A DNA stretch of 63,995 bases, the filler included, from Sluysia triapertura (Eukaryota): assembly GCA_046118255.1 (NCBI GenBank). It is 5 parts of 5 records of this genome, joined end to end, with 100 filler letters (N's around TTAATTAATTAA, not from the genome) between each part and the next. Parts side by side here need not be neighbours in the genome. Positions count along the whole stretch, not along the records: positions 1 to 18,127 come from JBJNIA010175251.1; positions 18,228 to 29,271 come from JBJNIA010189686.1; 3 more parts are not named here. The stretch is one strand, 5' to 3'. The notes under the pieces were generated by a model that was not told the DNA's origin, did not search any database, and worked only from the letters and a program-made list of their open reading frames with translations. This document shows positions 1-33,845 of this stretch, piece after piece. The position numbers and the translations under genes were made by a program. How positions within the stretch are numbered: the stretch's first letter is position 1; the number at the start of each line of letters is the position of its first letter.

Positions 1-92
1 TTCTTTCTGTTTCAGAAATATTATGGTGAATGATTTACCTTAAGCGCTTTTGAGTACTTTCGCGGTAGATATGAGCAAAATATAAATTAATA

Positions 93-131
<39 letters not shown>

Positions 132-132
132 T

Positions 133-2285: not shown

Positions 2286-2369
2286 ATATCGAACCAGTCA
2301 ACGAAGAAAAACAAATATTATATCCACAAAGAAACTTAGTTTAGATGATTTGTGCTAATAATAATTATA

Positions 2370-5300: not shown

Positions 5301-5673
5301 GGTTACCACCTTCATCACAATATATGGAAACTCCAGAAAATTTACAAGATGCTTGGAAACGCGCTGGTTTACAACGCGTTACACCCAAGAAACTTATAAA
5401 GATACTTATGATAAAAAGGAAAATGAACATAATTTCATGGTAGGAGACAAAGTATTAGTAGATTATCCAATAAAAATCAGGATATTCTCCAAAATTACAT
5501 AAACCATTTAAAGGACCTTATGAAGTAATGAAAACAACTTCTACTAATTTATACATAAAGAAACCTAATGATATGAATGCAGAAACGTTTGTGGTGCATG
5601 TAAACCGATGTAAATTAGTACCTAATGATAAATATATTTTAAGAGATAGAAAAGTGCTACAAAAAGTGTATTA
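2370..5673 (+). mobile_element. pol: Degenerate Ty3/Gypsy pol (protease-RT-RNase H-integrase)
   Basis: Protease ALVDTR (2432, mutated DTG); RT SPVLLVKKKDGTMRFCIDF, LDLQSGY, MPFGL, YIDD at 3656-3667; RNase H LTTDAS; integrase H-x6-H and C-x2-C, LTDQGTNF, PQTDGLVERFNRTL; GPY/F motif FKGPY near 5510. PR-RT-RH-IN order is Gypsy-type. Confidence 0.95.
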
Positions 5674-5799
5674 AAAGTTAAACCGAGAATTAAGGACAGA
5701 GACAAACCATCTAAATCACTAAGTATATCATCTAAACCATAAGCACAGATGTAACAAATAATAAAGTGATAAGCACAATAAATATGATAAGTACAATAT

Positions 5800-6202
5800 A
5801 CAAAATCATTTAGTTCAGAGTATTAAATTCAATCAAAGATAGGTACGAGCAGTCACAGATACAGGCTCGAATAATACTATTATCAATTATAATGTATTAA
5901 ATGCCTTAGAAGTTAATATGTTGCAACAAACGGGAATACGATTATTTGCAGTAGATAGCTCGCATATTCTATTTAATGGCATATTGCAATGTCAATTAAC
6001 AATATTAGATGTAGATTTATTTGTAACAATACTAGCTTGGGAAAGATGTCCATATGATGTTATATTAGGAATGGATGTATTAAACAAATTAGAAAATGTA
6101 GTAATACATGGAAGATTAGGATTTCTTAAAATACCTTTAGGTACACATGTAGTATTACCACAATTAGTTTTACCTCCAATGTCAAGAGCAGTGCAGCCAT
6201 GA
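5800..6202 (+). pseudogene. Second retropepsin-like aspartic protease downstream of integrase
   Basis: In frame with ORF 5918-6202: VRAVTDTGSNNTII (DTG 5858-5866) and YDVILGMDVL; in-frame TAG at 5840-5842. Confidence 0.8.
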
Positions 6203-6262
6203 CCACAAAATTATCAAATTATTTCATTAAATCCAATTATACCACCATCACCAACTCCAAAT

Positions 6263-7527
6263 TTGGAAAATCTTGATTGGTGGGACACCAGAGTTTCTTC
6301 GACTTCAGGTTTAGGAACATGTAATAATAATGACAATAGTACTAACAATAGTAGTAATAGTAATAGCAGCATAATGTTTATAAGAGGAATTCCAAATAAT
6401 AGATTTCATTATATAATAACTTTCATATTATTGTTATTTCATTTAACAACCATGATATCGCAATATCCAGCAAACTTAACAAGTTATACCGATACTAAAC
6501 AAGCAATTTTTCTAACAAAGATTTTGGACAGTTGAAATAGGCGAGAGAAATGAAATACCTAATTACAATTTAGAAATTTATTGCATACATTGGAAACCAT
6601 CATTAATAAAGAAACCTTTGTTAATAGATGATATTTATCAATGAGAACACTCAATCTATTTTACTGCAATAATAGGATTTTCGTTTTATGATAGTAAATT
6701 GATAACATTTAATTTTACAGATATACTTAATGAACAGTGTTATAAGGAAACTTAAATAGCACCTACAACAGTAACAAGCAATTTGGAAAGTTCAACAAAT
6801 AAAGAAATAAGTATGGAAATAAGTACGAATACAATAATGAAAAAGAACGAAGATAGTACAAAGAATTTCTTTATATTGGCACTTTTAATTTTTACCATAA
6901 TATACATACTATTTACTATTTATTATATTCTTACTTGTAACAGAATCTTAAGAACTAATAATATTCGACGAGACATAATGTTACTTATTATATTATCATT
7001 AGTATCAATTGCAAACGGATCACAAAGAGTATATAGATCAAAATATTTTGATTTCTACAACTATGATACAGAAGCCCAAATTAAAATGACCAGTACAAAT
7101 AAAAAAGCGCAATATATATGTATTAATCCAGCAACACTAAACTTTAGTTTATGGGAAATCCATCAGCTTGCAAAACCTCATACGGAATACTCCGTTACAA
7201 TTTGTAAGGGTTTTTTTGCTTTCCAAAGATAGGCACATGGTAATATTTATAAAAAGGCAAGCCAAAATCATTAAACAACCTCATTATGCAATACAAGGTA
7301 ACTGAAAAGAATTAACAATTATGAAATCATTACGAAAGGATCCATCATTGGCAACTCTAGTAATAGCAGCAACTTTATTTATTATTGATTTAATTATAAC
7401 CTTATTAATGATCATGTTCTTTATAATGAATAAATGCAGATATTTAAATTTTTCACCCAGTAACGACGACGATATTCATTATTCAGAACCAAGAATCATG
7501 TCAAAGTGTATTTTGTATATTTTGTAG
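6263..7527 (+). pseudogene. Fragmented accessory ORF(s) with several hydrophobic TM or signal segments, probably part of the retroelement
   Basis: ORFs 6263-6535, 6783-7232 and 7321-7527 each have hydrophobic runs; same strand and A-rich composition as pol. Confidence 0.45.
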
Positions 7528-7975
7528 TTTATAATTTATAATTTGTATGATATTTCCTTTTATGGTTATAAATAATTATTTTTATTTTAATAAATTTCAA
7601 ATAAAATAAATTGTAAGTTAAAATGAAATTTAAATTTTAAAAATATAAATTCTAAAATTTCAAATATTTCAAAGAATTACTTTATTAAAATTTTAAAATG
7701 CGAATTTTAATATTTTAGTATTTTCTATTTATTTACAATAAAATAAAATTTAAAAAATAAATTAAAAAATAAAATTTTGTTTAAATAAATTAAAATTAAA
7801 TTATTTCTTTATTTTTCTTTAAATGAATCAATTTAATAAATAGAAGACATCTTCCAATATGGAGTTAATCAATTTTATATAAGCTTTTAACATAAATTTT
7901 TAGACAATTTTTATAAAGTTCTTTCGGTGAAAATTTCAGATGATAAATATTCCATGCTTTCCAAGTAATTTTTTA

Positions 7976-8776
7976 TTGTTAGGGTTTGCCTATTGATCTT
8001 AATAAGGGAATAGTAAAATATACTAAAAATCATTTTTATTTTGATGCAAGACCTTAATAGGGGTTGCGAAACTTATTTTAAAATCTTCTAAAACTGCCAA
8101 ACGAGGTTGAATAGTTAACTAAGTTATTATCGTTATTATAGTTTTAATCTTTGTACGAAGTTTAATTAGTTTTTTTGTTGATAATATACTTAATCGATAA
8201 TGTTCTTAATTGATAATGTTCTTAATCAATAGTGCGATAAACTTATAAAATCATTTTTGTTAAGCAACACCTTAATACGGGTTGCTTAATTATAAAATCT
8301 GTAATTTTAATTAAACAACACCTCACAATTGGTTGAAGAGTTACAAACGATTAATCAGCCGTAAGTCATAAGTAAGAAACTATTCTAAAGTTGATTAAGT
8401 TAAGTTATAGAAAACCCTAATAGTACGTCTCCAATAGTAGTATAAATCGTATATATTAGACGAACCGACTCCTTGGATATTCCATAAGTAAAATTCAGTT
8501 TTTAAGAGAAACACTTGTAATCAGTTCATCAGTGGATAACGGTGAAACGAAGTTATTTCTTTAAAAATCAGCTAAAGTAAAATAGTTTAGTATAAAGTAG
8601 GAATAAAGGTTAGTAACATGATCGTATTTTGTATTAATACGGGCGTCAAAATTTATCTTAGATAAGTTGTGTCACCCATGCTTGCGATTCATCATTAAAG
8701 AATAATTTATATTATTATAAAGAATAATATGTACTGTTGATGTTAGAAAGAATATTTTAGTTGTAATCTTGTGACA
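7976..8776. repeat. Repeat region, possibly the 3' LTR/UTR, with ~220-bp diverged direct repeats and a segment shared with 18865-18990
   Basis: gcaagaccttaataggggttgc (8046) vs gcaacaccttaatacgggttgc (8264); 26-nt identity between 8523-8548 and 18896-18921. No clear PPT or TSD found. Confidence 0.4.
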
Positions 8777-9259
8777 ATATAAAGAATATATCAAGATTTT
8801 GAATTTATTTAGATATTTAGTTTTAATTGATAATTTTTAAAATAAAAAGCACAAAAGACACATCAAAACATAAAGTAAAATTAATTAAGAAATATAAATT
8901 ATAAATTAGACTTCATTAACAAAATCCTAAACAATGAAGATTAATAAATTAATTAGACAAAAATTGCTTTTGTCAAATTTACTATTTTTAGTATTATTGT
9001 AAAATGCATCTGTTATTGTTATGACTGTTGGAGCATAGCTTTACCACCGATTATCTTTAGTTATAGTATTTTTTTGAAATTCAATGTCTAAATTTTAATA
9101 AGATCAGATTTTAGTCGACGTGTAAAAATTCAGGGAATCTTGTAAATTATTATATGAAATCAAATGAAATTGCATATTATTAATGTAAAATTTAAAGAAT
9201 GATTTTAATTTGTCTGATGCTTAAGTTAAGGTATATATAAATTAATAGTTAGTAATTCT

Positions 9260-11131
9260 TCAACCTGGACCAGCACAGCATTGTTCACTTGTTTCCTCTC
9301 TTTAATGTTTCTTATGAATATTTAAATTTTTATCATGTGACCATTCCGAGTATTTTTTGTAAGTTTCAACAGAAAATGCTCTCCACTTCAAATATTTTTA
9401 TCAAATCTAATGGAAACATGATTAAAAAGTAAACAAATGAAATAAATTTAAATAATTTTTTAACCCACATAGGTTTCTGTAAATGCAATAATAATAAATA
9501 ATATCTTTGGAAACTTTATTATTTTGTGTTGTAATATTAGCTTAAAGATTTTAAAAATTTGAAATGTTAACTTGTAGATTTTTGTATCTTTAACAAGATA
9601 TGTTCCTAATGATTCAGTATCGTAGAGACAAAATCGAGTTGTTTTTGATAAGGAGTTTATGTTAGACTTCAGATTTTTAGGTTCGGATCTAGTAAGTAAA
9701 TCAATTATGATAATAGTAAAATTCTGTACAAGGATCTGACGGATGACGAAGTGAGATGTTAGGTTATGAGTCGTGTTTACTGTTACGTATGTACATTTAC
9801 ATATAGGTATAGTTTGATCTTTTAAGTTATCAAAAGACATTGACTTACGTTACGAACTGGTTTTTGTCGTAATAATACGAAATTCTTTTTTAAGAAATAA
9901 TAGATTTAATTTTAGCGTTTTAATTTCTAAAATAAATATAAAAATTCTAAGTACAATACATTTATTATATGAAATGGGAATTTTAAATTTTGACAAAGTT
10001 TTCTCTTATTAAATCTTTGTCCAACACTACGACCAGTTGCTCTCCATTGATCCATTCTTTAATTTGATTGACTAAAATATAAATCAAAAAGGTTATAGAA
10101 CAAAACTTACATACAACATCTTACCTCAAAAAGTATTGTTCATTAATTTGCATAAATTCACTGTGCTCATCAATTTAGTGTTAATGATGTTGTCAACTGT
10201 TGACGTTGTAGTGTTGTGTTGAACTCATTAATTCGTAGTAGAATAAACTTGTAATGATAGATCTTAAAACCATTCGTAGCATTAATTTTTGATATTGAAC
10301 TAAAGCGATGTACTGCTGTGTCTAGGAACAATTCGATTAAATTTTTTCGCATTATAGTGCTGGCCTTTGGTCGGCTTGACAGATGATAACCAATTAGTTC
10401 ATGTTTATACTCCTTTGATATATTGTGTAGGTTACTCATGGTCCGTATACTTCTGGCTAAATCTTTATTGTCATAATTATCCAATTCGTCTTCGAGTACT
10501 CTCTCAATAACTAACTGCTCATTCAGGATTTGGGATATTTGATAAACTTTTCGTTGAACTAGTTCAATGATTAAAATTTTTTGCCGTGGTTTGATTATTA
10601 ATAGAAAATTTTTTGAAAATAGCATCGTATACGTGTCAGTAAGGCAAGCTGATTTTGTCAGATTTACACTATTAACTAAGTCGATTAAACCTTTTGAACT
10701 TGGTTTATTGGATCCACTATTCCCATTATTATTCATTTCTGGTGCTGCATTATAACTTGTAATTTTAACTTCATCATAAACATTTGTTCTAATTGTTTCG
10801 TAGAAGGGATTATCTTCATTCTTTAGAGTACTACAAGAATCACATTGATTATGTTCGAAGACATTAGAAAGGGTAATTAATGGATGGTAGCTTTATTGTC
10901 ATTAAGAAAAGATAATACACCATAAACATTTGAAATTTGCTTTGTTTTTTGCTTTCGATCTAAATAGAATTCATTAAACTCGTTAAAATCTTTCATAAAT
11001 TTATTTGCCAACAAATTACTACTTGGTTTTAGAATATCATTATCAAGAGTAGTACATTTTACTAAAGTTTGGACATAAGATGATTCCATAGAATTTTTAA
11101 TAACTGGTCGATTCGGAGAAGTTTTTGCCAT
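9260..11131 (-). pseudogene. Disrupted spliced host-like gene, tentatively RhoGEF (DH-PH)-like
   Basis: ORF pieces 10877-11131 and 10170-10736; RQKILIIELVQRKVYQ and KIYHYKFILLRI resemble DH start and end helices; GTAAG donors near 10123 and 9848; exon SIKLKEWINGEQLVVVLDKDLIRENFVKI resembles a PH-domain start. Frameshifted. Confidence 0.35.
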
Positions 11132-11299
11132 GATTTAATGTGAATGAATATTCGGCGTCAAAAATTACACATGAAAAACAATTCTATTTGACTGTAAAAT
11201 GGTCTTTTTTATTAGCAAAACAAATAAATTGTCACACTTTGTATAATATTGTTTAAGAAAGAAAGTATTCACTGTAATTTTTATTAACTAATATAAAAT

Positions 11300-11557
11300 T
11301 GTCCATTTTACCCAATCAGAGTCTCGGAAAGAATATTTAATAGTATGAACTCTGATTGGGTAGTGTGTACAAACTATAGACATAAATTGAAGTTTGACAT
11401 AGACATAAATTGATGATTGACCATCATCAGTGTTGGCACTTTAATGAAAAATGTAACGTATAGTGTCAACACTTGTGATGGTAGCAACCAGGTTGATCGT
11501 CATTTAAATGAGTTTAAAGTAAATTATATTTTGTGAAAATAAAATAATTTAACGTTT

Positions 11558-11608
<51 letters not shown>

Positions 11609-12450
11609 CTTTCTTGACAATCCTTAAAAACATTATCTTTTCTTTCTATGTCTTAATTTCTTACATATTAAAATAAGATAACAAATAAAACTATTGGAAT
11701 TATGTGAAGGAGCAACGGTAACGTGTTATATGGTGTTTAGGTTATCGTTGCTGCCTTCACCAAAGAAATGAATTCTTTAATGCTCTATTAAATTTATTTT
11801 TTGAAAATGAAAGAATGATTTGAGCTGCAAGTAAAATAAAGAATGCTAGAATAAACTCTTGAGATTCATTCAAGGTTTATAATTGAAAATATGGTTTATG
11901 CACTGAATGTAATGGTTTAAAATGCTTGTTAATAGGTTATAGTTTATTTGATTTAAAAGACAATTACAAAATAAATCTTAGCGTATTTACAATGTTATTG
12001 AAGAATGTTAATAATGATTATGTGTAGAGGCAATGGGTTTAAATTAGTTTGACTGATTCGTGATTGTAGTGTAAATGTTTTCTATGTTTCGGGTACTTGT
12101 TTGTAATTTAAATATTATGTGTTATGATTGTAATTTGGTTTAAGAGAATGACTATTGAGTGAACGTTATGGATTGCTTTTCGTGTTAATTATCGAAGTAG
12201 AGTGTGAGATGAATGATTGAGAGTATTCGACGAGTTGTTTTTAAGAAGTGTATATTGTTGAATTAATATGAATGTCGAATGTTGTTTTTGATGCATCGGT
12301 TAATGTATTGGATAGTATGAAATGTGATTGATTTAGAAGTTATGTTGTTTTGTAAACTGATTGTTGTGGTTTGAATATGTTAAGTCTGATTAATATTTAA
12401 AATTGTAGGATTTTTAGAAAATTTAGAATTGTGGGTGTTGGCCACTACAA
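11300..12450 (-). repeat. Dispersed non-coding repeat, copy 1 (homologous, inverted, to 19150-20145)
   Basis: Reverse-complement matches: gttggccactacaa/ttgtggtggccaac, tttgagctgc/gcagctcaaa, and 11405-11490 vs 19945-20030; strong GT/CA strand skew. Confidence 0.7.
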
Positions 12451-12459
12451 GATGACTAA

Positions 12460-13560
12460 TGGACTAACGTTTATTAACGTATTATTAACATACTATTGAT
12501 TATTTATGACTAACAAATTATTCATTGTAATATTTGTTCACATTATTTAATTGAATTATCGATTTATTAATACTATTTTTAATTATTATTCATTTTATAT
12601 TTCTTTGTATTTTTGAATATTCGAATTTTTATGTGATTTATTTAATTTTGGAATATTTGAATGCGATTCAAAGTAAGAAATTATATAATTATATTAATCG
12701 CTAATTAAATTAATATATTAATAGTTAAACTACGTAATTATAGAATTAAATAAATTTATAAAATAAATTTTAATATTTTGTTTTAATCTGACCAATGTCA
12801 GATTAAAGCAAATATATAGATCTAAAATTTTGCAAAATAACTTACAATTTTTGCTGACACAATTTTTGATAGCACACAATTTCAACTTATAAAGTTCTTC
12901 AATACAACTTGTTATTACAAGTCTTCTTTTAATACTGGAATTCGTGGTTTACGATTCGAAATCATTCTACTGTCATGCTTCAAAATAAATTTTATTTAAC
13001 GTTACGTTAGTTTAATTGTGATAAGTCAAGTTATTAACAATATCAACGTAAATTCATTTGATATGTATTTTAACTTCTGTTCAGTTAAAATACGCAAATT
13101 AATTGTTATTAATATTACTATTATATACATTATATTATTGTTTCATAATAAATTATTAAAATCGAGTTTCATTATTCAATTTACATATTCGTAAAAATAA
13201 AATCCATAGACGAAAACACGTTTTCAACAATTGGAATTTTAATCCAATTTCGTAAAATCATTTTTGAGATTCCATTTCAAGGAATCCACTTAAAATAATC
13301 CTAATAACATTATTATTATTATTAATTTTGATTATTTAAATAAAATTTTATAAAATTTATTAGTATTAAAATTTACCTCCAAAAAATTTTTAATATTTCA
13401 CTGTCAAGATATAAACTAGCATCATTAACAAAACTTTTTGAGTATTTCTATAGCCTTAGTTAATAATCCTTTTATTCACAAATCCAACGGCTGGTCCTAA
13501 CTGGTAAGCCCACTGCGTTGGTGGACTCACGTTAAAACTTTTGATTTATTCTATCTTTAC
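12460..13560 (+). repeat. Dispersed repeat related to ~34600-35390
   Basis: ctggtcctaactggtaagcccactgcgttggtggactcac (13491) vs ctagccctaccggtaagactagatgtattggtgaactcac (35312), plus similar attattaaca..tattgattattt starts. Confidence 0.5.
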
Positions 13561-16500
13561 TTTACTTTTCCCACAGAACTTAATTCTGCTAGATTCAAAT
13601 AATTAAATTACAAAAATATTTTGTCTTTATTTAAAATAGGACTTGAAAAATATATTTTGAGTTTCTTTAAAATAATCCTTGAAAAACAATAATGTGACAT
13701 ATTTTATAACTTCTAAAACTATCTATTTTTATTTTTTGAAATAGCTCATTAGTTTTAGCCTATATAAAATTGCTTTTTAAAGAGGCGCTGAGGATTAAAA
13801 GAAACCAATAAATAATATGAAGACTACTATTTGATAAACAAAATGATTTGTAATTGTTAAGGAATTAATAATCAGATATACAATAGAGAAATGATAACCG
13901 AGTTGCTAAATTAAATCTCAAAAGTTTTTAATTGATATTTATTTTGTTTTGATTAGATTTTATCGACTTATTTAAAAGGGTCATTTAAAAATTTAAAAAG
14001 ATTTTAAGTCGGATTTTAATATGCTTTAAGGATATTAAAACTTAAAAATAAAAATCTAACGTATATCTTTTATGAAATTAATGCGGACTTCGTTTCCGAT
14101 TCAAATTTACTTGGGATAACCAGATGGTATATAAAAATTCTGAAATACGAATTAAGTTTTGCCAAAAATAAAATATAAAATTTTCAAAGTGAAATGTAGA
14201 ATTTTCACAAAAATTTGTATCACCAAAAATGAAATGTGGCACAAAGTTTTTTGCAAAATAAAATTATGAAAATTATTTAACTAATAATGTAAATAACAAA
14301 ACAAGAATATGGTGTTTATTTTTTTGTTTTACTTAACAAAAGAAGGGAGCACCATTTATAGTACATTTTGATTTGACATTTAAGGTCTTTATATTAATGC
14401 ATAATCTGCGTACTGGTTTAAAGGTTTTTTACTTTAGCTTACTGAATACTTTTTCACTTACTACGAATGAAAAATTATTATTATCATTGTTGTTTCTATT
14501 ATTCTTTTTATTGCATTATTCTTTTTAAAATTCATATTTTTTGTACAAAGACAGATAAATTCAGATCTTTTAAATTTTTCAGTAAAACATTTTTGAAATA
14601 AATCTCTCATGCTAAATACAAGAATAAATTATGTAGACAAAATCTAAAGCAAATAAATTTTTCTTTGGTTTAAAAATCTAAAAATAAATGTTAAAGACAA
14701 ATTAGGATTCTAATGTATCAAATTGGGCTGTAGTTACGTGACAAAAAATTTTAATGTGTCAATATAATAATGTAATATTCGTATAAATAAAAGAATTTAT
14801 AATATAGAAATTAAGTAAGGTGGATGCAAATTTCAAATAAAATTACATTACAGAATGGAAGAAAAAGTGAAAAAAATATATATTGTGTAAGATTTGTCAA
14901 ATGGTGAGATTAACTATGGAAAGAAATTGATCTTGAGAAAACTCAAATAGGAATTTTTTTGGTTCTAACAAAGTACTCGTTAAAAACTATACAAGGAGAA
15001 ACATCTTAGAGAAAAGCACAAAGAAAATACAAGTTGAGACAAAAAAGAATCAAACGAAAAGGAACTAGGAAATATTTCACTTTAAATTTACCAGATATAT
15101 CCAAACAATTAATTTTAATATTAGAACCGTTAGAATATGTAACGTATTGTTGAATCAGTGTTACGCTGTGTTACTCGTTTTAACTTCTAATAATTATTCA
15201 TCATTCTAATATTCGATTATCGACTAAGACTGTATTGAAAATAATTATTCAGTACACATAATTTCCGAGGATTCGTTATTACAGAGTACAATAACAAATT
15301 GGTAATTTTGAAAGGTTTAACTAATATAAAATTTTATTTTGCAAATTTAGTTTTATAAAATTATTAAAAAATTATTTTGTTAAACTATTTTAAATTTTAA
15401 TTTGTTAAATTTTTAGTGAACCTCAATTTGTAAATTTATTAAAACGGATTTTATAACATGTGCTTTTTATCATAATCATCAATTTGTATTATCATAAATA
15501 TATTGTTTTTAAAATTCAAGCTTAATAATTATTCTTTGCAAGAACTTAAGTTAAACTTTTTCAATTATATATTATTACGTATCGACAATAGTTTAAAATC
15601 TCTTGATGCTTATCTATTCTTAACAACCCTTTATTTTCTTGATTTATAAATGATTTTTATGTTGTATTTTATATGAAAGCGTGAGCTCGGATACTCGTAT
15701 ATATATAACCTGGAATAGAAATGCACAAGTCTAAAGTCTAATTAAAGTCTACTGTATTTAGTAAAAGTACTCTAAATTAATTCTATGTGCTATAAATTCA
15801 CTCTTATTTTCAATTGTGACGTGTTCTTTAATTTATTTTCTTTTGGGGGCACTGATTCCAATAAAAAACAAGGATCATATTCGAAAATTTATTATTCAAA
15901 TACTGCATACAGAATTAGTAATGATAAAATTAACAATAGTAAACAAAAGCAATTTTATTAAATAAACGAACACAGAAATTTTAGTAATTGTTACAATGAT
16001 TATGAAGTTAATAAAAAATATATTTATCGTAACTTTAATTAGTATAATTTTAAACTGATAGTGTAATAAATATCACTTACTTAACCTCAGTAAGTCTTTG
16101 TTATACTTAATGATAGTTTGTATCTCCCAAACGAATTCGAAAAAAATTCTCCAACAATTCCTCCTTTTTCGTATATTAATTGTGATTCCCAAATATTTCT
16201 CCTCGTACAAAAAATCGTATATCCCAAGTAGAATTTCTAAGAATATTTCTGCTTTTAGTACAAAATCGTATGACCCAAATAAAATTTTTAACAATATTTT
16301 TCCTCGTACAAAAAAATCGTGTGTGATTTTATTGCACTCTAATATTAATTATTTATTTACATTTTAAGTATGTAGTTATGAAAAATAATTTTTACATTGA
16401 TAATAATAGTGCATAAATAATGCATAACTTAACTTGTTAAAATGGTACATAATAATAAATACTTAATAATATGTTATGTGCATTTAATTTCATAATAATA

Positions 16501-16669
16501 ACGAGTGATATATAAATTAATTTGTTAATAGGTAATAATGATAGTTAATAAGTAATAAATGTACACTATGATTTTTCTCGATTATAATGCTTTTAATTTT
16601 GAAATAATTTTGATATTACATTATTCTTTATGTTCTACCAATTCTTTAATTTAAGTTGATTTTAAATTG

Positions 16670-16917
16670 TAAAATGGTTGAAATTTTAAAATGGCGATTT
16701 TCATTAAACTGATGCAAGTTTATATACTAGTCATCAGCAAACGAAAATCGATGGAATGTTCTAAAACATTCTAGAAGCTTCTATTTTATTTATAGAAGCT
16801 TTATTTATAGAAATTTATTTTCTTTTTTGGAAAATTAATATTTTTTAGGTGTTTTTAGACATTTATAAATAATTTTAAAGCATGTTGTGTGATTTTAAAG
16901 GGTTATAATAACAACCT
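16670..16917 (-). promoter_or_regulatory. Repeated promoter-like cassette, copy A (HSE array, TATA, YY1-like motif)
   Basis: GAAtgTTCtaAAAcaTTCtaGAAgcTTC at 16754-16781; TATATAAA on the minus strand; AAAATGGCG; closely similar to 22920-23175. Confidence 0.6.
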
Positions 16918-17463
16918 AACACTCATCTGAGCAAAACCACATCACATTCGTAATACAAAATATTTGTTCTGTACATTATGTAACTAAATTTTATCAAAAA
17001 AATAACGTACATAAAACATATTGGGAAACGTAAAAAATTTATCTTTAAAAGTATTTTAAAATAATAGTAAAATGCATTTCAAACTAAAGTTTAATAAAGT
17101 ATTATTTTTCAAATAATATCTAAAATTGTATTTTCAGCTAATTGTAAACTAATTATTGTGTTACTTTTTTCTATTTATTTCATTAAATAATAATAAATTT
17201 TAAATTATTTTCTTATTTAATATAGTGATTATGAATTTTTTTCAAGTTATTATTAAATATGGAATATACAAATTTCAAATTTAAGTTTAGATTAGCATTA
17301 CTAAATGTGAAAAAAATAATTTTTCTACTCTCACAATCCATACATTTGAAGAAGGTAAATGAACAAATCAAAATGTACAATTTTTTTCAATGGAAAATAT
17401 AAAAGTTGATTACTCAAGAAAGCAAAAGTTTGTTTTTTTATTGTGTTGCTTGAAAAGATTAAA

Positions 17464-17734
17464 ATGAGTCATTCTAAAATTAGTTCTTCATCATCACCTA
17501 AACAAAGTAATATTTCATCTGCTTATAATGATGCTAATTCGATTAATGACGATTTGGACTATAAAATAGAACAAGTATTAAATCAAAGCTTTAAAGAAAA
17601 AATTATTCAATTATGTAAAAATATATCAATTTTATTGCTCATGACATCGATAACGTTAGGCTTGATGGGTTATGTATTTTCTAGTAAATTGGAAACTGAT
17701 CGTAAAGCAACGTTATTGAAATCACTAATTCAGT
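17464..17734 (+). CDS. Possible exon of a small single-pass membrane protein
   Basis: ATG at 17464, Ser-rich N-terminus, TM ISILLLMTSITLGLMGYVF, GTTAGT donor at 17735; no family recognised. Confidence 0.35.
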
Positions 17735-18073
17735 GTTAGTTTTTTATATTTAATGTTTGATATAGATTTATACAATTTTTAATTGACATTTTTAGGTCTT
17801 ACCACAACATGTTTCCAGATTCAATTGTGTTGCATTCAAATATTTAATTAATTGACTTTATCTATAGAGTGTTTAGATATGTAGATTCACCAATGTTAGA
17901 ATTCATAAAATGGACTGATTAGAATTCTGCCTCGGGCCTTTTATACATTATACAATTTTATATATTACAAATTATATATTTTAAAATGGTACGTTTAGGT
18001 CTAGACTTCAACATTAATTTTCTAATTTGATAATTTGCAGGTTACAATACGGCAATGAAAGTAATATTACGTT

Positions 18074-18074
<1 letters not shown>

Positions 18075-18127
<53 letters not shown>
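18075..18127. repeat. (ACT)n microsatellite at contig end
   Basis: Direct observation. Confidence 0.95.
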
Positions 18128-18227
18128 NNNNNNNNNNNNNNNNNNNNNNNNNNNNNNNNNNNNNNNNNNNNTTAATTAATTAANNNNNNNNNNNNNNNNN
18201 NNNNNNNNNNNNNNNNNNNNNNNNNNN
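18128..18227. other. Artificial contig join (N run + TTAATTAATTAA linker)
   Basis: 100 nt with a six-frame stop linker; same structure at all four gaps. Confidence 0.97.
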
Positions 18228-18439
18228 TGCTCATTATAAAATGATATTGGATTTAGTGCATAATATTGAATTTTATTAATGTTTTTAATGATGAACTATT
18301 TCGAAGCACGTCAGCGTAAATAACGTAAAAATTAGTTATTTTAATTTATTTTTATAATTTAAAATTAAAGTTAAATATGTTCCGATGTCTATATATTAAT
18401 AAAGTATATATCAAATTAATGTTTATAGAGAGATCAAAT

Positions 18440-19140
18440 CAAATATGTTATTGAACTTGACGTGCGACACACAACGTATTAATGCGGAATACTCCTTTGA
18501 GAAATAAATTTATTATTTCGTTAATTTTATCGTTAAATTAAATTGACAAATTATGTTATCATTATAAAAGCAATGTGGCAATGATTTTTAATTTTAATTA
18601 GGTGATATTAAGAAGATAAAGGGATTGTTTTACACAAATTCCATTATCTTTAGATATTTGGAATGATAATGAAGTTGAACAAAGACGGATATTGCTGTCA
18701 ACATTTAATCGGTGAAATTAGTCGGCGAAAATCGACAACTTTAATTTCTATCTTTTTCGATTTCTGATTTTTAATTTCATTAATTGCCATAAAACTGATA
18801 TATCAGTAGTTATATTTCTGCAATTAAAACAGAAGTAAAAACGAGTCAGGATAAATCAAATAAACTAAATTTTTTAACTTTAGAGAAGCTGCTTTAGTTC
18901 ATCAGTGGATAACGGTGAAACTAAAGTCATTTCTTTAGCAATTGACTAAAATAATCTATTTTCTTTTTAGAGAAATGGTTAGTAATATATTTCTTATTGT
19001 TTATATGCTTATAAAGATACCAATTCAAATACGTTATTGAACTTGACGTGCGAGGTATGGTTGACGCACAACGTATTACACAAAAGATTCCTATAGAAAA
19101 ATAAATTTATTATTCCATTAATTTAATTTTTAATTTAAGT
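18440..19140 (+). repeat. Pair of ~100-bp direct repeats (18440-18545 and 19025-19140)
   Basis: gttattgaacttgacgtgcga...cacaacgtatta...aaataaatttattatt present in both. Confidence 0.75.
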
Positions 19141-19149
19141 TAATAAATT

Positions 19150-20145
19150 GCGTTTGTGGTGGCCAACTTATTTCCCTAATGAGTTTTATAGAAAATTACC
19201 TGGACTTTCACTAACCTAACAATCATTCTCAAAATCTATAAATCACATTTAAAAATCAACAGAAAGAAACATTAAACTAAATAAACACATTGTACATAAA
19301 ATCACACTTTTAAACATTGTAATATTTCCACATTTATCTCTTTTACATCCATTAAAAACATCTTCATCCTTTAAAACTAATTAAACCCACAATCCCATAA
19401 CATTCAAACCACAAACACATTCAATACATCAAATTACATTAAAATTCTTTTACCTTAAAACAATTCAATTACAACTACATTCGAAATTAATCAACACGCA
19501 TTTCAAAGCAATTCAAACATTATAAATTCACGATCTAGTATCATTAAATCCTAACAACCAAACACGACTTTCTTTCAAAACACCAGGTATACATTTAAAA
19601 ACTAATTTTAAAGCAGCTCAAATCGTAAATCTCTAGAATCACAAAATAATAATAGCGTTATAAATTTTTAAAGAATCTAAGACTTTCTGCATTTTAATAA
19701 CAATAATAACAATAACATTGTCGCTCTTGTTATTATTGTTATTATCCTTAATTCCATCATTTTAACTCTAACTTTCATATATTTCAAGAAATATAAAGAA
19801 AATCAAAAAAAGATCGTGTGAAATTCTAGAATAAAAAGTTTATGTGATTTTTGGATAATAATAATAACATTTTGTTATTATTATTATTATCTCCATTTTT
19901 AATTTTTATTAATTTTATTGTTAACTAGAAATAGCAAATTATGCCGTAACTACCACTACCAATGGTGACTACATTAATTTACAATGACAGTCAATGTCAT
20001 CACTGATAGTGGTTCACTCATCAATTATCAAGTAATATGTTGGCACACCAATCACACAACTCTTGATCTTTATTATTGGTCGTCCTACCAGATTTATGCT
20101 TATCACTATTTTTATGTTTCTCTGGTTGGACGGCCAATCAGGTCG
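19150..20145 (+). repeat. Dispersed non-coding repeat, copy 2 (homologous to 11300-12450)
   Basis: See copy 1; hairpins at 19696-19743 and 20076-20139. Confidence 0.7.
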
Positions 20146-20374
20146 ATTTTTTTATCAGATTCTTTTGATTTTATACTGATGGCTAATGATTGAAAATGCC
20201 AGTTCACAAAATTTTATTTTTGTTGTACAGAGAAAAGGATATTAAAATAGATATCTGACAAACAATTGGCATCAATAAAAATTTTCAGTTTAAAAATAAC
20301 AAAAAAAGAGTTTTAAATAAACATACGCATTAAAAAGTTTTCGAAACGCAATTCCTGAGCTAAGTGAACTAAAA

Positions 20375-21407
20375 ATGGATTTTAATGATTATAAAAACAA
20401 TGAAAATGCTGCAGATGATGTTAACAAACTAGACAATAGTAAAGATGATAATGCTCTAGTTATAAATGCTAAATATGATCAAAATAGAGTAAAAGATGTT
20501 AAACATAACAATTATCAAATACGTAATTATAAAGTTTAGATTAACCTGATCGACAATAATAAAGATGTTAATGCTCTAGTTGTGATTGCTCAAGATTATC
20601 AGAATAAAGATGATGATGATGATGAATATAACAATTATGAAATATGTAGTTATTAATGCTAAAGACGATAAGAATAAAATTAGTGATGATCAGGTCGAAA
20701 ACTTTAGAGCATATAATTTTCAAGATCTGTATAACGAAATTGGCATTAGCAGAGATAACGATTTACAAAATAACAATCTTTAAGGCGACAATGACAAAGT
20801 TATTAATGTTGAAGTTAAGTATTGCGAGTCTAACAATTATAACCCTAATTACAATAAAGATAACAATGTTGGAGATGTGGTTACACAGACTGAGAAGAAG
20901 AAATATATCGATTATCAAGTCAACAACAATGACGAACACGATGGTTTCTTTATCCGCTATGAAGATAAATGTTATAAACTTAAACAATACAAAGTCGATT
21001 TTCTTAGTATTTATAAAAATTATATACGTGTTTTCGAACTTTATTATTATGAACTAATTGTAATTAATTTTCTTAATGTTAATAATAATATTTATTCTAT
21101 TGATATAAATAAACCTAAGATTAATGAAAGGCATAATAAGGACAAATAGTATTTTTGTCCTCTTGATAATTATAGATGTAATGACTCTCGGCGTAAAGAT
21201 AATAAGCATGAGTATTGTATGTTAAATAAAAGAAAATCTACTGTTACAACTGCTATGTGTCCAGCTCTTACTGATAATAAAGGTATCTGCTTAATGTGTG
21301 GAGTGTACTGCAGATACACTCATTCTATTCATAGATTGAAGTTCAGCAAACAAGACCTTTGTAACTTACGACTTGCACTTGCTACTAAATACAGAATTAC
21401 TAAATAA
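20375..21407 (+). pseudogene. Disrupted ORF: D/N-rich repeats followed by CCCH-type zinc finger(s)
   Basis: ATG at 20375 (MDFNDYKNNENAADD); repeats gacaat.gtaaagatg.taatgctctagtt at 20431 and 20552; reading through TAG 21147 gives YFCPLDNYRC...KH then TAMCPALTDNKGICLMCGVYCRYTHS. Confidence 0.55.
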
Positions 21408-21750
21408 TATTGCAGGTGTTTCCAACATTTCAGGCGGCAATAATTTAATAGACAACAACGTTAAGGTAAATAATATTTACTTTTATTTATGTCGTGTTAA
21501 CAATCATTATCATTATTATTATTACTTTTATTTATTAACTAGGTAGAACGTCGAGAAGAAGTAGCAGTCAAATATAAAAATTAAAATTTTTCAAAAATAA
21601 ATCTTTACGTTTTTATTTTCAATTTCTGTATAGGGAAGATATTACAACTAGTTTAGAACTAAAAAAATTTTAGAATTTTAGTAAAAGCTAATCTTAAATT
21701 TTATAAAGTTAAAAAATAGTTTAAATTTAAAATTTAAAAATAACTATCAA

Positions 21751-22802
21751 TCAATCATAAACACCATCAACTTTCCACAACAGGCGGAGATGGGCATGCT
21801 GGAGTTCGCCGTTCGAAGTACTTAGCCACTTTTTCAATTTGGTTGGTAGAATCCAGAAATCTTGTCGTATATGTAGGCTGATCTGATGTGGTAATTGATT
21901 GCCGTAGTGCCGTCCTGATCGCGTTGGATACTGCGGACTCGTTAAAGCGGAAGAACAAGAATAAAAATATTTTTTAGCAGTAGACTTAGATGAGTAAAGG
22001 AAAAGTGCCGGTGGGAGTTTATTACAATTTGGTATGAACATCAGATCTTTATCCCTGATCAGATCAAGAAGTTCAACCAACACAGACGCAAGTTCCCTAA
22101 ACGTAAATTTAGGAAGGACAAGATACAACAGTTTAAGTGTCTGTCTCGCCCTAAGAAAGTCATCTTCTATTGTGAATGAGATGAGGTTGTGATTAGTAAG
22201 ATTAATCACTCCTCTCAACCATCCAAAAGGCAACTGGAGGGATTCGATAACAAATCGGGGATTTAAGGGCACCAATATCTTGTCCTGAAGGTGACCGTAG
22301 AATAACTGATAATGTTAAAACAATAATCATAAAATATAAATGCTATTATCTCCGAGTTAATCATAATATAACCACAATAACAAACATTACTGTCTTCCTC
22401 GTTTCCCAAAATAATTATAGATTCGAAGTCTATCATTACTTTCTTCTTCGAACAAGCAATCAATATCTCTTAATAATGTTTCCTTCTCTTATTCTTCTTC
22501 TTCGTCATTTGTTATACCGTTGTCTTTCATCCATCTACTTACAATTGTTGCAACGTATTTTCTTTTTTCTTCAAGTTGTTGAGCATTTTTAATTATCTTT
22601 TTGTCTTTCTTCCTTTAGTTGTGCTTCCTTTTTCCTTTTGGCTTCTTTTTCCCTTTTGGCTTCCTTTTCCTTTGGGTTCTGTTTCCTTTTCCCTTACTAG
22701 TTGCATGAAACATTCATGTAAGTAATTGATAAATATATCATCTCCATCGTCATGTTTACTTTTAGGTTGTTTTCTTTCCTCCTTATGTTCAGTACTATCC
22801 AT
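21751..22802 (-). pseudogene. Orphan ORF cluster, paralogue 1 (basic/acidic ORF 22593-22802 and ORF 21751-22275)
   Basis: GC higher than flanks; LVPLNPRFVIESLQLPFGWLRGVINLTNHNLISF..DDFLRARQTLKLLY matches the 23394-23850 copy. Confidence 0.5.
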
Positions 22803-22854
22803 CTTTGCCTACGGAATTTCTGATTGAATCACTAAATTGCTTTGCAAATTGAAG

Positions 22855-23175
22855 CTAAAATGGCGACTAAAAAATTTAACTGCTAAAATCAAAATGGCTG
22901 TACTAAATAGCTAACTAATTAAATGGCGATTTTCATTAAACTGATGCTAGTTTATATAGTAGTCATCAACCAATGAAAATCGATGGAATGTTCAGAACAT
23001 TCTAGAAGCTTCTATTCTATTTATAGAAGCAAATTTTCCTTTTTAGAATTTCTATTTTATTTTTTGGAAAATAATTTCTTTTTGGATGTTTGGAAACTCT
23101 AAAATATTTTTTAAATGATTTAAAAGAAATTTTAATAATATTTTTCATAATTTTAAGGGGTTGTGATGGCAACCT
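22855..23175 (-). promoter_or_regulatory. Repeated promoter-like cassette, copy B
   Basis: Perfect four-unit HSE GAAcaTTCtaGAAgcTTC at 22995-23012; CCAAT 22970-22974; TATATAAA (-) 22951-22958; three AAATGGC motifs at 22857-22928; ATG at 22802 downstream. Confidence 0.65.
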
Positions 23176-23304
23176 TATATCTCTTCTCCGTTTATAAGAA
23201 TTTGTCCATAAATTTCAAAACTAAAGATATAAAGAATTAATAAACACAATATAATAAATGTAACGTTAAAAAAATGAAAATTATTATTTTAATCACAATT
23301 ATTA

Positions 23305-24400
23305 TCAATGTAAATGCCAGTTAAATATCTCCGAGTCTTCTTCGCAATGGTATAATGTATCATCTGGTGCGAACCAGTCAGTATCGGAATCGTCTAGATC
23401 GACGCCTGGCGAGTGACATCTCGAGAGTGTTGATTTGGCTGGATGGTCACAGATGATCTGAGTAGACGTAAAAGGAGACAGGCCGGAATGATCATGGAGG
23501 AGTTGTTCGGGACTGGTCGAATCGAATTGGTGGAGAAGTTGTGATAGGATAGGAGAAGGAGGATTTGTATAAGAAGGAGAAGAACAGATAGGAGAAGGGA
23601 AAGAAGAAATCGGAAGAGGAGGAGGTAGATTTTGCGGCAAAAAGGTCGAATGGAATTAGAGATGAAGTCGAAACATGTCATTTTAGGCAAGAATGGGTAT
23701 ATAAGTTTCAACACCAACTTAGCCCTTAGAAATTGGTCGACTGTGGAGAACGAAACTAAATGCATGTTGGTGAGGCTTACTATTCCTCTCAACCAACACA
23801 AGGGATACCTAGAGTTTTAATAACGATGTCTGGATATAAAGATACCAAGAACTTGTCGTGTAAGGAGGCTAGCCAGTAGCTCCTTATATCATCTACGTCT
23901 TTTGCTGACGACAGATTTTCATCATTGAGTCCATGAATCTCCTTATAAAAGTTTTGAGCTCTAACCCGAGGACGAATGATATCTATCGAGTGAAATTTTT
24001 TATGGTATGGCATAAATCCTAGTTGGATAATTCGATGGTCACGATTCACATCCAAAACATGATGAAAAGCTACGAAAATAAGCTTATGCAGGAAGATGTG
24101 GAGTATGTGTAAACATTCATGCCACTCGTCAAGATGTTGAACGTCAGTGGCATAGAGAGGGTTTAAACAAGATTTGGTGACCCTAGGATGAATAGGAAAT
24201 AGTATAACAAAAGTGGTGGGGGTGTTCATCAGCTTCGATTTTGATAACTTGAGATTTGGTGAAATTCTCCACCCGTAATGAAGAATATCCGTAGATTCTA
24301 AAAAGGAATGGGGAAAATGCTAATGTCATCGTGACTTTAAGGACGCCAAAATAATGAAACTTTTATCGTCAGGGAATCCAAAAAGAGCATTAACGATAAT
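23305..24400 (-). pseudogene. Orphan ORF, paralogue 2, frameshifted, with Pro/Ser-rich acidic tail
   Basis: 23789-24229 ends LVSLYPDIVIKTLGIP and continues after a frameshift as CWLRGIVSLTNMHLVSF..DQFLRAKLVLKLIY; tail in 23305-23640. Confidence 0.55.
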
Positions 24401-25039
24401 CGAAGAAAGGGTTTCCGATAGAAAAATAAATGTGTTATAAAATTTGTATTTAGTTCAGATTTAAGAGGGTTAGGTGTTGTTTTTGGGTTAAGAAAAGAAA
24501 TGGCAGGGTTCTTCTTCCTGCAAAACCTCTTAAAAGTTATAGCAAAGTCGGCATGTACGAGAAACCCAAACCACCGAAGGCAGCAAATCGAATCCAATCG
24601 GAAACAAAAATTTTGCAAAGTCAACGAATCGAGTCTTCAAAACAATATATTTCAAACAACATAAAAGTGTATGTACATAGTACAGATACATATGGAGTTT
24701 AAAAACTCTACAGATAAGAATAAATAATAAAGTCTTTCGATCACATTATGTCAATTTGTTATTACTCAAATATTCGATGATTCTGTTTCCTCGATTGATG
24801 CCACATTGTTTTCTTCTGCACGATTTTCTTCGTTTATTTCTGCTTCATCGGATTCTTCTTTGTCAATCTCTACATTGTTGATATCTACATGCATATCTGG
24901 TTCGTTGATATGTATCTGCTCCGTTAGTTTCAACTTCACTATCACCATTGTCGAAGAATATACCATTATTGTGCATATTATAGATTCTGCAACTTCACGC
25001 AATAGATTTAATTATACATTCCTTCTTTATCTTTTAGAT

Positions 25040-26900
25040 AAAGAGAAACCAAGTAATTTCAGGATTTTGTTGTTTTCAGGATGCCAACTGCCCAATGATC
25101 CCACGCAAATCGAGAAATACCGCCCAGTTTGGTTTTTTTGATTTAATTTCATTGATAAGATTCTGATATTTTGTCTCGTTGAGAGTTCGAGAAAGATTCA
25201 CATTGGTCGCCTCATCATAAGTCATGTATTTGTTCTTTGATTCTGATATTAATTGTATGTCTAGTCTCAACATACTTGAGCTGAATTCGAATATTCTGTC
25301 CATAATAACTTGGAAGTCGTGCAGATTGAGTAGATAATTAGATATTATTCGGAGAAATGAGTTAAGCCTGTCAGTAATCATATCTGAGTTGTTGATACAA
25401 TGATTCAGAATATAAGATTGTGATTCAGGCCACATTTTGCATTTTCGACAAAGCCTATCATTATAGTGTCTATCAGGCCTGTCGTTAACTGGAAGAGAAT
25501 TAGTTCGGCTCTGTGTATGAATGCCCATTGATAATATCGAAGATTTCCATGGTAAAGAATTGTTGTTCTGGAATTTGATATTGATGTTTCGCATTTTCCA
25601 GCAAACTTTTGTACTGACCACTTATAAAAGTAAATATATTTTATATTTAGAGGTTATTAATTTTGAATCTATAATATTTGATATTTTGTTATTAAATTGT
25701 AATTGTAAACAAATACCTAATTCTAATTTAACAAAATTTATGGCAATTAAAAAGTTGTGATTTAAATAGAAAATGCTGTTCCTGACCCTACACCACCAAC
25801 TTGGAAATATATCATTTCCTTGACCAGAATTTAGCCATTTAAGTGGATCTGGATTTTCAGAATTATGTGGTAAATGAGAGTGTCGCGATGAAGTATCTAA
25901 AAGTTCTTCAAAAGGCAAGGTTGGCAACATTTTCTTCATCACAAACTAATATTCGGAATGCAAAAATGATTGAATTTACTTCATAATCATCCCTTTCTGA
26001 GACTAAGCCAACACCACCATTAGATATTGGAGGATAAAGGTAATTATTCGTTGCATAATGTGGTAGCTTGAGAATTCCTTTAAATAGCTTAGATATTTTT
26101 GCATCATATCCAGGTTGCTTGATATATTGTTCAGTGCGATTTTTGAATCCATGACTAGATAGCATGTCAATGTGGAACCATGATGTTCTCATTGTAAATT
26201 GTAGAGGTGAGTGTATAAAGGTTTCGTAAATGTACAGCGTTTTCGATGGTTTTAGTCCACATTTAGAGATTTTATCAAAAACTAAAATAGCTTTTTCCAG
26301 TAACTCTTTTGGATCATGCTTTTGGAAATGAACGAAATGTACTCCCAAATATTTATATGAATTCCTAGATATTATTGGAATTGCGTTTTCATAAATAGTA
26401 GGTGCCTTTCTATTTTCTGGAAAGGATAAATAACCTCATTTTCGGGTTTAAATTTTAATTGTGTCCAGTCTGGATTTCAATAGCTTTATATATCATTTTC
26501 CACAACACAAAATTTGATGGTGCTATTAATGCCAAGTCATCGGCATAAGCTAAAACAGATATTTTTATATTATTTGAATTCCGTAGTGCTCAACTTTTGA
26601 TATTTCTGTTATAACTGGGTTTATTCCAATATTGCATAGTAACATAGACAAGGGGCATGCTTGGCGAGCAACTCTTCGCAATTCAATCTTCGATGTCACT
26701 GTTGATTCGCATATATAGCTTGAACTGCAACCCTTATACAGAATCCCTATTAACACCCATGCGTTGCAGTAAACCATTAATATGTTCAATTGGTATAGAT
26801 GGAAACGCTTCAGCTATATCAAGAAAGGCAATGTGTATTGGTAAAATGGAGTGACACCGTTGATGTTTCTCAATTAGAGATGTTAAAGTAAAGATATGCT
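25040..26900 (-). mobile_element. 5'-truncated degenerate non-LTR retrotransposon of the restriction-like endonuclease type (R2/NeSL/R4-like)
   Basis: DIAEAFPSI, RQACPLS (from QGCPLS), VLAYADDLALIA (YADD 26536-26547), YKYLG, GGVGL; C-terminal CRKC..ESQSYILNHC knuckle and RLDI (from RPD). Confidence 0.88.
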
Positions 26901-32618: not shown

Positions 32619-33845
32619 TTATATTTTATCCGAATAATTTGATTGTATCAGTAAATTTTCTTGCATTATTTTGTAATTTCCATCTGATTTATTTATTACA
32701 TTATGTCTTGCATTATGTAATGATAATAATGATTTTGAAGTACGATTACGATCTTCATAAACTGAATTTCTATTTGAACATTGTATTAATTTCATAATAT
32801 CATTTCGAAATCGTCTTCCGGCAATACAGTAGAGAAAAAAGTTTATTGAATGATTAGTGTACATTAAGGTTTCCACAATAGTATCAATAAGCATAATTTT
32901 GGATCGTTGTTCTTGATCTTGGAAATAAATAGGAAAATGTTTCCAAATTATTGTAAGAGTAATTTTAAAAATTGCAACTGGTATAATGGTCAACAAAAAC
33001 ACCCATGATACTAGTATAAGCATAATTAATTGTTGAGATGTTTGTGAATCAACATAATTTCTAATTGAATCGGAATTAGTAGTTTCATTTTTATTTATTT
33101 TTTTGGTATTATGTTGCAGTTTTTGTCGTTGACGTTTCGATTTCATTAAATAATGAATTATTTTAACATTTGCAATATAAATTATTAAACAAGGACAATA
33201 ACTATAAAGACTAGCATCAATCCAAGCCCAAACATTTTCAAATAGTTTGTTTTGTAAAATACATTTACTATTATACTTTATGGTAGTAATATTTATTGAT
33301 GATGCTGTAAAAGTTGAATTTGGTAAATTAGTTTTGTGCAATGACATTGTAAATAAAAAGTGCACATTGATTAATAAAAGTGCAATAAGCATACATAGTA
33401 CACTAATTCTTGCACGATATGCTGTAGTTTGTGAAGAAGCTTTTAAAGGTCTTGAGACTACAATCATTCGTTCAACGGTAACAGCAACAATTAACCAAAT
33501 AGCGAAATGTGATATAGTTGATGAAACAAATGATAAAACTTTACAGCTAAATATCGATATGTTGAATAATTTTATATTAAATGTTTGACCAAGCCATTTA
33601 GTAGTTAAATTAACAGTTAGAACACATTGGTCTGCAATGGCAAGGGAAAACAGATATATGTAAGTTGATATATGGCGAGTATGACGATACAAAACCCACA
33701 TGACCATAATGTTACCAAATGAACCAATCAAAAATAATATCGGAGGGCAGTATGTTCTAATGTATTTGTGACATCGAAATGCAGAATAATTTTGAAACCA
33801 TTCTACTTCGTCTGGTTGAAGATTCATTACAATGATATTGTTCAA
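32619..33845 (-). CDS. Rhodopsin-family (class A) GPCR, FMRFamide/sex-peptide/myosuppressin-receptor-like group
   Basis: Intact 408-codon ORF with 7 TM; GN in TM1, LAIAD in TM2, C-K TM3 start, TVER (DRY variant), NHSINFFLY (NPxxY variant). First ATG is at 33827; an AG acceptor at 33861-33860 suggests an upstream exon. Confidence 0.95.
   Translation of the reverse strand: MNNIIVMNLQPDEVEWFQNYSAFRCHKYIRTYCPPILFLIGSFGNIMVMWVLYRHTRHISTYIYLFSLAIADQCVLTVNLTTKWLGQTFNIKLFNISIFSCKVLSFVSSTISHFAIWLIVAVTVERMIVVSRPLKASSQTTAYRARISVLCMLIALLLINVHFLFTMSLHKTNLPNSTFTASSINITTIKYNSKCILQNKLFENVWAWIDASLYSYCPCLIIYIANVKIIHYLMKSKRQRQKLQHNTKKINKNETTNSDSIRNYVDSQTSQQLIMLILVSWVFLLTIIPVAIFKITLTIIWKHFPIYFQDQEQRSKIMLIDTIVETLMYTNHSINFFLYCIAGRRFRNDIMKLIQCSNRNSVYEDRNRTSKSLLSLHNARHNVINKSDGNYKIMQENLLIQSNYSDKI

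Follow-up and report, generated by a model that had tools for sequence, protein, structure and literature searches.

We analysed a window of 63,995 nucleotides (nt) of DNA from Sluysia triapertura (assembly GCA_046118255.1), about 24% GC and made of five parts of the genome separated by four 100-nt N linkers. It contains two copies, here called A and B, of a leader of about 1 kb that carries a cluster of hairpins and stands in front of a broken open reading frame (ORF); a decayed retrotransposon of the Gypsy type lies in the same window (Table 1). Because the copies sit on opposite sides of the linker at 18128-18227, their back-to-back arrangement is not established. A first-pass annotation had taken the leaders for an undescribed, gene-capturing mobile element in front of host-like genes. 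Its layout of the locus holds: both leaders have the C/A-rich tract, and the ATG follows the last hairpin after 178 nt in copy A and 237 nt in copy B, close to the 180-240 nt originally given.

Table 1. Features of copies A and B and of the Gypsy fragment, in window coordinates; z, RNA folding z-score
Feature	Copy	Position	Strand	Remarks
Decayed Gypsy fragment, env (Monjiviricetes fusion) before PR-RT-RH-IN		91-5750	+	Pfam
Leader	A	11300-12449	-	
Left terminus TGTAGTG, start of TGTAGTGGCCAAC, LTR-like	A	12443-12449	-	Two contigs leave at 12449 and 12450
C/A-rich, G-poor tract, putative U3	A	11829-12442	-	C 135, G 35; summed depth 10-48k
Shared 12-mer GCAGCTCAAATC	A	11817-11828	-	Two occurrences in window, one per copy
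Hairpin 1, followed by shared TAATTCCA	A	11704-11760	-	z -6.55; consensus with B
(ATA)16 run	A	11559-11607		
Hairpin 2	A	11420-11484	-	z -4.29
Hairpin 3, CCAAT-containing	A	11309-11362	-	z -5.64; high-copy part stops near here
ORF, ~550 codons	A	9460-11131	-	Frameshift near 10880, more stops and shifts; repeated, no homolog found
Leader	B	19155-20145	+	
Left terminus TGTGGTG	B	19155-19161	+	Match of one contig begins at 19154, preceded by 133 foreign letters
C/A-rich tract, putative U3	B	19162-19612	+	C 99, G 22; depth 6-10k
Shared 12-mer GCAGCTCAAATC	B	19613-19624	+	As for A
Hairpin 1	B	19696-19743	+	z -5.71; consensus with A
AAT/TTA run folding as extra (fourth) hairpin	B only	19854-19889	+	z -3.86
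Hairpin 2	B	19950-20014	+	z -2.16 on + strand; 4/200 shuffles as good
Hairpin 3	B	20076-20139	+	z -4.95; high-copy part stops just past hairpin
ORF, ~340 codons, Asn/Asp-rich, C-terminal CCCH finger	B	20376-21407	+	Broken, repeated
Right module, putative R/U5 and right LTR end	B	21382-21646	+	AATAAA 21596, T-rich stretch, end TATTACA

The homology proposed earlier between 11300-12450 (-) and 19150-20145 (+) appears real, at a level too weak for BLASTn. A self-search of the window with 2/-3 scoring gave no A-B match, and one with 1/-1 scoring gave none among the matches listed. A composition-aware alignment scored 70.3 in one setting, against 42.2±6.2 and a maximum of 63.4 in 100 local shuffles, and 68.7 in a second setting, below the best shuffle (74.1). 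The relationship rests on the collinear anchors TTGT.GTGGCCAAC, GCAGCTCAAATC, TAATTCCA and AAAGTTTAT, and on an 80-nt block comprising the hairpin-2 region, which is clearly homologous (z 8.2). The first anchor occurs exactly twice in the window, at the starts of A and B (1.6e-4 expected). Across the C/A tracts (460-620 nt) the alignment is confined to a 14-nt start motif (z 3.5), and the tracts otherwise have only composition in common. No second copy of either leader was found elsewhere in the window.

The four hairpins described at first are real by RNA folding against 200 shuffles, with z of -6.6 and -5.6 in A and -5.7 and -5.0 in B: no shuffle folds as well as hairpin 1 or 3 of either copy. 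In a scan of all 90-nt windows the A and B hairpins rank 1, 2, 4, 5, 6 and 12, and the spacing of 342 nt (A) and 333 nt (B) follows from their coordinates. A further shared hairpin, hairpin 2, lies inside the 80-nt homologous block and had been overlooked. The stems had been called unrelated; those of hairpins 1 and 2 are in fact related between the copies, with paired changes. In hairpin 1, 8 of 14 pairs are identical, five are changed on both sides and one on one side only, and in hairpin 2 the figures are 9 of 12 identical and three changed on both sides (one to G-U). No consensus structure of A and B was obtained for hairpin 3, the 3´ arms of which have nine of ten letters in common by eye. 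As paired changes arise partly by construction when two stems are aligned, selection on the stems is suggested, not proven.

Copy data were taken from contigs of one public run of one study (share 0.60 for the region), possibly the source of the assembly itself, aligned at 80% identity, and statements on contigs cover the best-supported rows of the depth tables. Where the window copies have a stem mismatch, the listed contigs mostly carry the pairing base, as do 93 contigs at 11474 (hairpin 2 of copy A) and 45 at 20086 (hairpin 3 of copy B). G-U pairs in single copies did not fix the strand of the hairpins; for hairpin 2 of copy B the comparison is -26.1 against -18.5 kcal/mol on the other strand. 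A tRNA gene search found none, and a degenerate hairpin-2 motif with 38 metagenome and two viral matches was set aside as chance, none of the 40 loci extending beyond 26 nt.

The high repetition of both leaders, together with their sharp end, agrees with the earlier idea of a mobile element. Single-locus contigs have a depth of 17-22, and summed depth is not copy number but a rough guide to abundance. Relative to a single copy, the leaders have median depths of 596x and 346x, the ORFs of 48x and 72x, and the right module of copy B of 629x (medians exclude the repeat-skipped bin 19774-19907 of copy B and edge bins), which corresponds roughly to hundreds of leader copies and tens of ORF copies. 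A and B are diverged members of a repeat family common in the genome. Their depth profiles are alike, with a high leader, a dip and a lower repeated ORF. In copy A, depth is 3.9-48k over the leader and falls from 9376 in bin 11276-11436 to 335 in the gap (bin 11115-11275), with 577-1283 over the ORF at 9505-11114, 35-97 over 8861-9504 and 520 just beyond the leader. In copy B it is 5-10k over the leader, 6190 at hairpin 2 and 2130 at hairpin 3, drops from 2701 at 20086 to 35 at 20158, and is 62 in the gap and 543-2561 over the ORF; at the right side it reaches 9.6-12.9k over 21382-21649, then 488, then 21. One contig with a joint at 11250-11312 ties hairpin 3 of copy A to the pre-ATG segment. 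Joints from 19715 and 19745 to 21502-21506, considered as short deletion variants, were discounted for their side of 21 and their low-complexity TTA sequence.

The ORFs are both disabled and unrelated to each other, as first described; ORF B is interrupted by three stops (near 20537, 20781 and 21148) and by one frameshift (near 20645), three of the contigs listed differ from the window near the first break of ORF A, and the two ORFs have neither DNA (z -1.0) nor protein similarity. The RhoGEF-like character given to ORF A found no backing. Three pieces of the ORF gave no RhoGEF match at E<=0.1, Pfam and PHROGs gave no support, the Protein Data Bank (PDB) yielded nothing but one ribosomal match (E 0.91), the protein database, searched among near lengths only, no match at E<=1 in 155 candidates, and the Atlas no usable match; a predicted model, with a mean predicted local distance difference test score (pLDDT) of 32.5, is unusable. 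In ORF B the CCCH finger stands as a motif (C-x-C-x-C-x3-H), but its match to PF25427 (E 1.4e-5, 25.3 bits) stays below the cut-off of 31.1, and none of six candidates among longer proteins matched the CCCH piece. These homolog searches were limited by length windows and short words. Since both ORFs are repeated, read as intronless and found no host relatives, the simpler view is that they are genes of the element, to which they likely belong, and not the host-like, captured cargo they had been taken for. As to an intron around hairpins 2-3, copy B does not retain the best donor of copy A (11664); where hairpin 3 ends there are donor-like sites with scores of 6.1 and 5.3 (background 2-4 per kb), and TTT(T/A)CAG acceptors are found at 60 and 87 nt upstream of the ATGs (background 0.26 per kb).

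The ends of the repeat resemble those of a known class, namely Gypsy elements' long terminal repeats (LTRs). Conserved marks of animal Gypsy LTRs are TG...CA ends, AATAAA and a downstream G/T-rich stretch, and the 5´ integrase motif of the CsRN1 clade is TGTGGYG (PMC3601003). Both leaders share the sharp left end TGT(A/G)GTG, at which three contigs break (12449, 12450 and 19154), and the motif is exact in copy B and fits at 6 of 7 positions in copy A. Copy B further has TG...CA termini (TGTGGTG...TATTACA), both at depth boundaries, where copy A has the left end only. The drop at ~21650 coincides with AATAAA, a T-rich stretch and TATTACA in the sequence; the AATAAA is 50 nt from the end, and that motif is common here (4 per kb). 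TATTACA fits 5 of the 7 positions of the clade's 3´ motif MSYYAMA, and the 2.5 kb length, the internal ORF and the hairpin cluster fall outside the CsRN1-clade LTR models as far as these are given (PMC3601003). The last 90 nt of copy B resemble the end (48945-49016; z 7.2-8.9) of another unit in the window, and its first 170 nt resemble 23157-23313 (z 7.7), which comes after an AAGGGG purine run, the related start being at 23162. The first of these units, at 48572-49032 (+), is a 460-nt TGT...ACA sequence with three CCAAT, TATA and AATAAA within an intron of glutathione synthase; it looks like a short solo LTR, and no target-site duplication was seen by eye. Within the right module of copy B, 21466-21542 (+) is a 77-nt intron-like segment (GTAAAT...ACTAG; donor score 8.6, background 0.57/kb), and one contig resumes its match at 21417, beside an acceptor-like TTGCAG.

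We therefore favour, with about an even chance of being right, the reading that A and B are the long LTRs of two giant Gypsy retrotransposon subfamilies, each with its own accessory ORF; that they are LTRs in one orientation or the other seems to us probable. Besides the common depth profile, the ends and the contig at copy A hairpin 3, a Burro-type element in the window speaks for this. The env-before-pol order is a peculiarity of the Burro elements of planarians, which carry accessory ORFs and have thousands of copies, an internal region of up to 25 kb and a total of >30 kb, and hence, by subtraction, LTRs of kilobase size (PMC6431247). The fragment at 91-5750 matches the order of Burro/GYPSM1, in which env lies between gag and pol, and is a candidate autonomous relative of A and B. 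Section 7 of the same source describes no ORF or hairpin cluster inside the LTR, and the ORFs of A and B match none of its listed Burro domains in Pfam (PMC6431247). The env-pol element extends over 91-7530 (+): its env fusion matches at E 2e-23, and a second aspartic-protease-like ORF (5843-6202) and several small hydrophobic ORFs follow the integrase.

Several observations weigh against this reading. All copy data come from the single run, and the left end rests on three contigs with sides of 21-22 nt or a single piece. None of the contigs listed joins the leader, ORF and right module of copy B, so that these could be neighbouring repeats. The motif TGTGGYG occurs four times in the window and, being an inverted-repeat motif, does not fix orientation, and for six of the seven hairpins the strand opposite the ORF gives the more stable fold. 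The search for a paired LTR was negative, the ends of copy B, the one old copy examined, have no target-site duplication of 4-6 bp within 3 nt, and no primer-binding site follows any candidate end save for one chance-level match at 20263. Copy A has no matching right end, since 8861-9504 is single-copy (best match to the right module of copy B, z 2.6), and no sequence similarity ties A or B to the fragment at 91-5750. The lack of a primer-binding site or polypurine tract adjoining A or B is expected for solo LTRs.

Other placements of the ends were tried. A right end of copy A at 8762, suggested by a shared AAGAT..TACAACTA, was rejected, single-copy DNA intervening and a repeat of 27k depth running across it. 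That repeat (8700-8860) did not match the one at 18228-19150 (z -0.3); it and 13208-13368 (7.9k) are further high-copy repeats. The very-high-copy repeat upstream of B (18228-19151, also 8486-8634; summed depth 68-880k over 18300-19103) was considered as a 5´ LTR, with TGGTGGCC as primer-binding site. This was ruled out: it has an internal repeat of ~590 nt that is interrupted by copy B, another copy is flanked differently, and there is no match upstream of A or downstream of B.

The strand preference of the hairpins bears on orientation. The 1.0-1.2 kb leader alone might be an LTR on the other strand, ending ...CAC(T/C)ACA, with the ORFs antisense and part of the internal region, and A might be the 3´ LTR of the env-pol element 91-7530. 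We regard this arrangement as unlikely, though it accords with the greater stability of most hairpins on that strand and with the stop of the high-copy part at hairpin 3, and a leader-to-ORF depth of ~10:1 fits an excess of solo LTRs. That strand is, however, G/U-rich, which favours folding anyway, and two of the six differences are <1 kcal/mol. On that strand TATAAAA stands ahead of hairpin 3 in A (11293) and B (20176) alike but has a frequency of 0.9 per kb; the G/T-rich part there is not preceded by a conserved AATAAA, and the purine runs before candidate starts are weak. The env-pol fragment does point toward A on that strand, yet another repeat and 650 nt of single-copy DNA lie between it and ORF A, and the high-copy right module of B is left unexplained.

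The absence of a target-site duplication and the high-copy ends around a variable middle would also suit a non-autonomous Helitron/Helentron-like or other DNA transposon with an interior that captures different genes, to which we assign only a slim chance. Helitron and Helentron-HINE elements resemble A and B in making no target-site duplication and in having an internal microsatellite and a variable interior, and differ in having a terminal TC, a 3´ hairpin ahead of CTRR and subterminal inverted repeats, none of which A and B show (PMC4778049, PMC4067079). The terminal criteria come from the same sources; for Helitrons they include 5´-TC and CTRR-3´ ends within an A/T site. Copy A does have an A/TC junction three bases outside TGT, but contigs stop at 12449-12450, short of the TC, and copy B has none. 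Copy B has CTAG/T right after TTACA, but there is no hairpin near CTAG (-3.0 kcal/mol, A/T only) and no palindrome at ~11 nt before the 3´ end, where Helitrons have one. Helentrons and HINEs have subterminal inverted repeats of 12-15 bp at 2-4 nt and 38-60 nt from the ends; no pair was found at these distances, only scattered matches of 10/12 to 12/14. With ends that fit an LTR and not a Helitron or Helentron, and ORFs with no host homologs found, the gene capture proposed in the first-pass annotation is not supported.

That the leader is an independent family of retroposed structured RNA or a microRNA (miRNA) cluster, with the ORFs and the right module of B as separate neighbouring repeats, is equally improbable: hairpins of pre-miRNA size (50-70 nt), the fall in depth from hairpin 3 to the ATG (down to 62 in B and 335 in A), and the mere ~1/10 of leader depth that continues into the ORF speak for it, but both copies carry an intronless, tens-fold repeated ORF in the same orientation, which follows hairpin 3 after 178/237 nt, the pre-ATG segment is connected to hairpin 3 by one contig, the sharp end has no poly(A) tail, and an Rfam search of 9000-25000 gave no matches at E<=1.

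If A and B are LTRs read in the sense of their ORFs, copy B would be a whole solo LTR of 2.49 kb (19155-21646) and copy A one with its right part lost or diverged, and the C/A tract would be the U3. An autonomous Burro-like partner would have supplied the reverse transcription and integration by which the element spread. Across subfamilies, the hairpins and the ends of the LTR may have been kept while the ORF slot was exchanged or lost, which would give a U-shaped depth. Most speculatively, the hairpins may act in the element RNA as a protein-binding site or small-RNA precursor.

One intriguing possibility, which we hold to be decidedly unlikely, is that in an invertebrate Gypsy lineage the LTR serves as a regulatory cassette, combining a conserved three-hairpin RNA module with a slot in which the protein encoded by the element can be exchanged: one subfamily would have a CCCH RNA-binding protein there, another a protein unrelated to it. 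Such a cassette would resemble the Tat/TAR and Rev/RRE switches or LTR miRNA clusters of complex retroviruses, with the protein swapped and the RNA scaffold kept. ORFs that overlap an LTR have precedents in U3, namely sag of mouse mammary tumour virus and nef of human immunodeficiency virus. For the hairpins the nearest precedent is the foamy-virus LTR miRNA cluster, where a long LTR likewise carries a cluster of stem-loops of pre-miRNA size (PMC3993851). Unlike the foamy-virus case, the element here has an invertebrate host, and none of the tests made identifies it as a retrovirus. Whether the element is undescribed thus has two sides: its ends match a known class, the Gypsy LTR, and the literature searches turned up no LTR that combines conserved hairpins with a swappable ORF. 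The accessible parts of that literature, including PMC8532177 and PMC11410931, have no LTR-internal ORF with a hairpin cluster in invertebrate Gypsy elements; the primary Burro description may hold one.

The window contains further traces of mobile elements. Two paralogous broken ORFs at 21751-24319 (-), 51% alike over 49 amino acids and of no recognised family, have one 365-amino-acid relative (P0105, E 1.9e-6, without Pfam match) and are probably accessory genes of a mobile element. A repeated unit at 22905-23175 and 16672-16920 (81-83% alike) has on the - strand ATTGG, TATATAAA, TCAGTT and GCCATTT in repeated form; this compact, promoter-like module lies in front of an ORF at 22593-22808, and at the end of each copy is a small palindrome of the type GGTTG...CAACC that resembles the A/B terminus. 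Broken ORFs at 25076-26860 (-) resemble by eye an R2/NeSL-type non-LTR element, and have no significant Pfam match. Inverted repeats ~515 nt apart at 31907-32421, with a 67% self-match, are like a miniature inverted-repeat transposable element. Five copies of a ~130-nt repeat end (1-128, 36806-36928, 42054-42200, 63171-63263 and 63718-63849), several followed by TAA/TTA runs, suggest the 3´ ends of a non-LTR element. A G protein-coupled receptor at 32622-33827 has named homologs from molluscs, annelids and flatworms (best match 48%), which places the DNA in a spiralian animal.

If A and B are ordinary old LTRs, the outcome is a repeat annotation, with the warning that their ORFs are not host genes. 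If they are LTRs of the kind proposed here, the terminal repeat of giant Gypsy elements in invertebrates houses an exchangeable gene together with a structured RNA module, a combination for which complex retroviruses of vertebrates are the main known case. The size of the family would allow covariation and small RNAs to be tested directly, and its hundreds of copies would, if this is true, scatter promoter-like and hairpin sequence through the genome.

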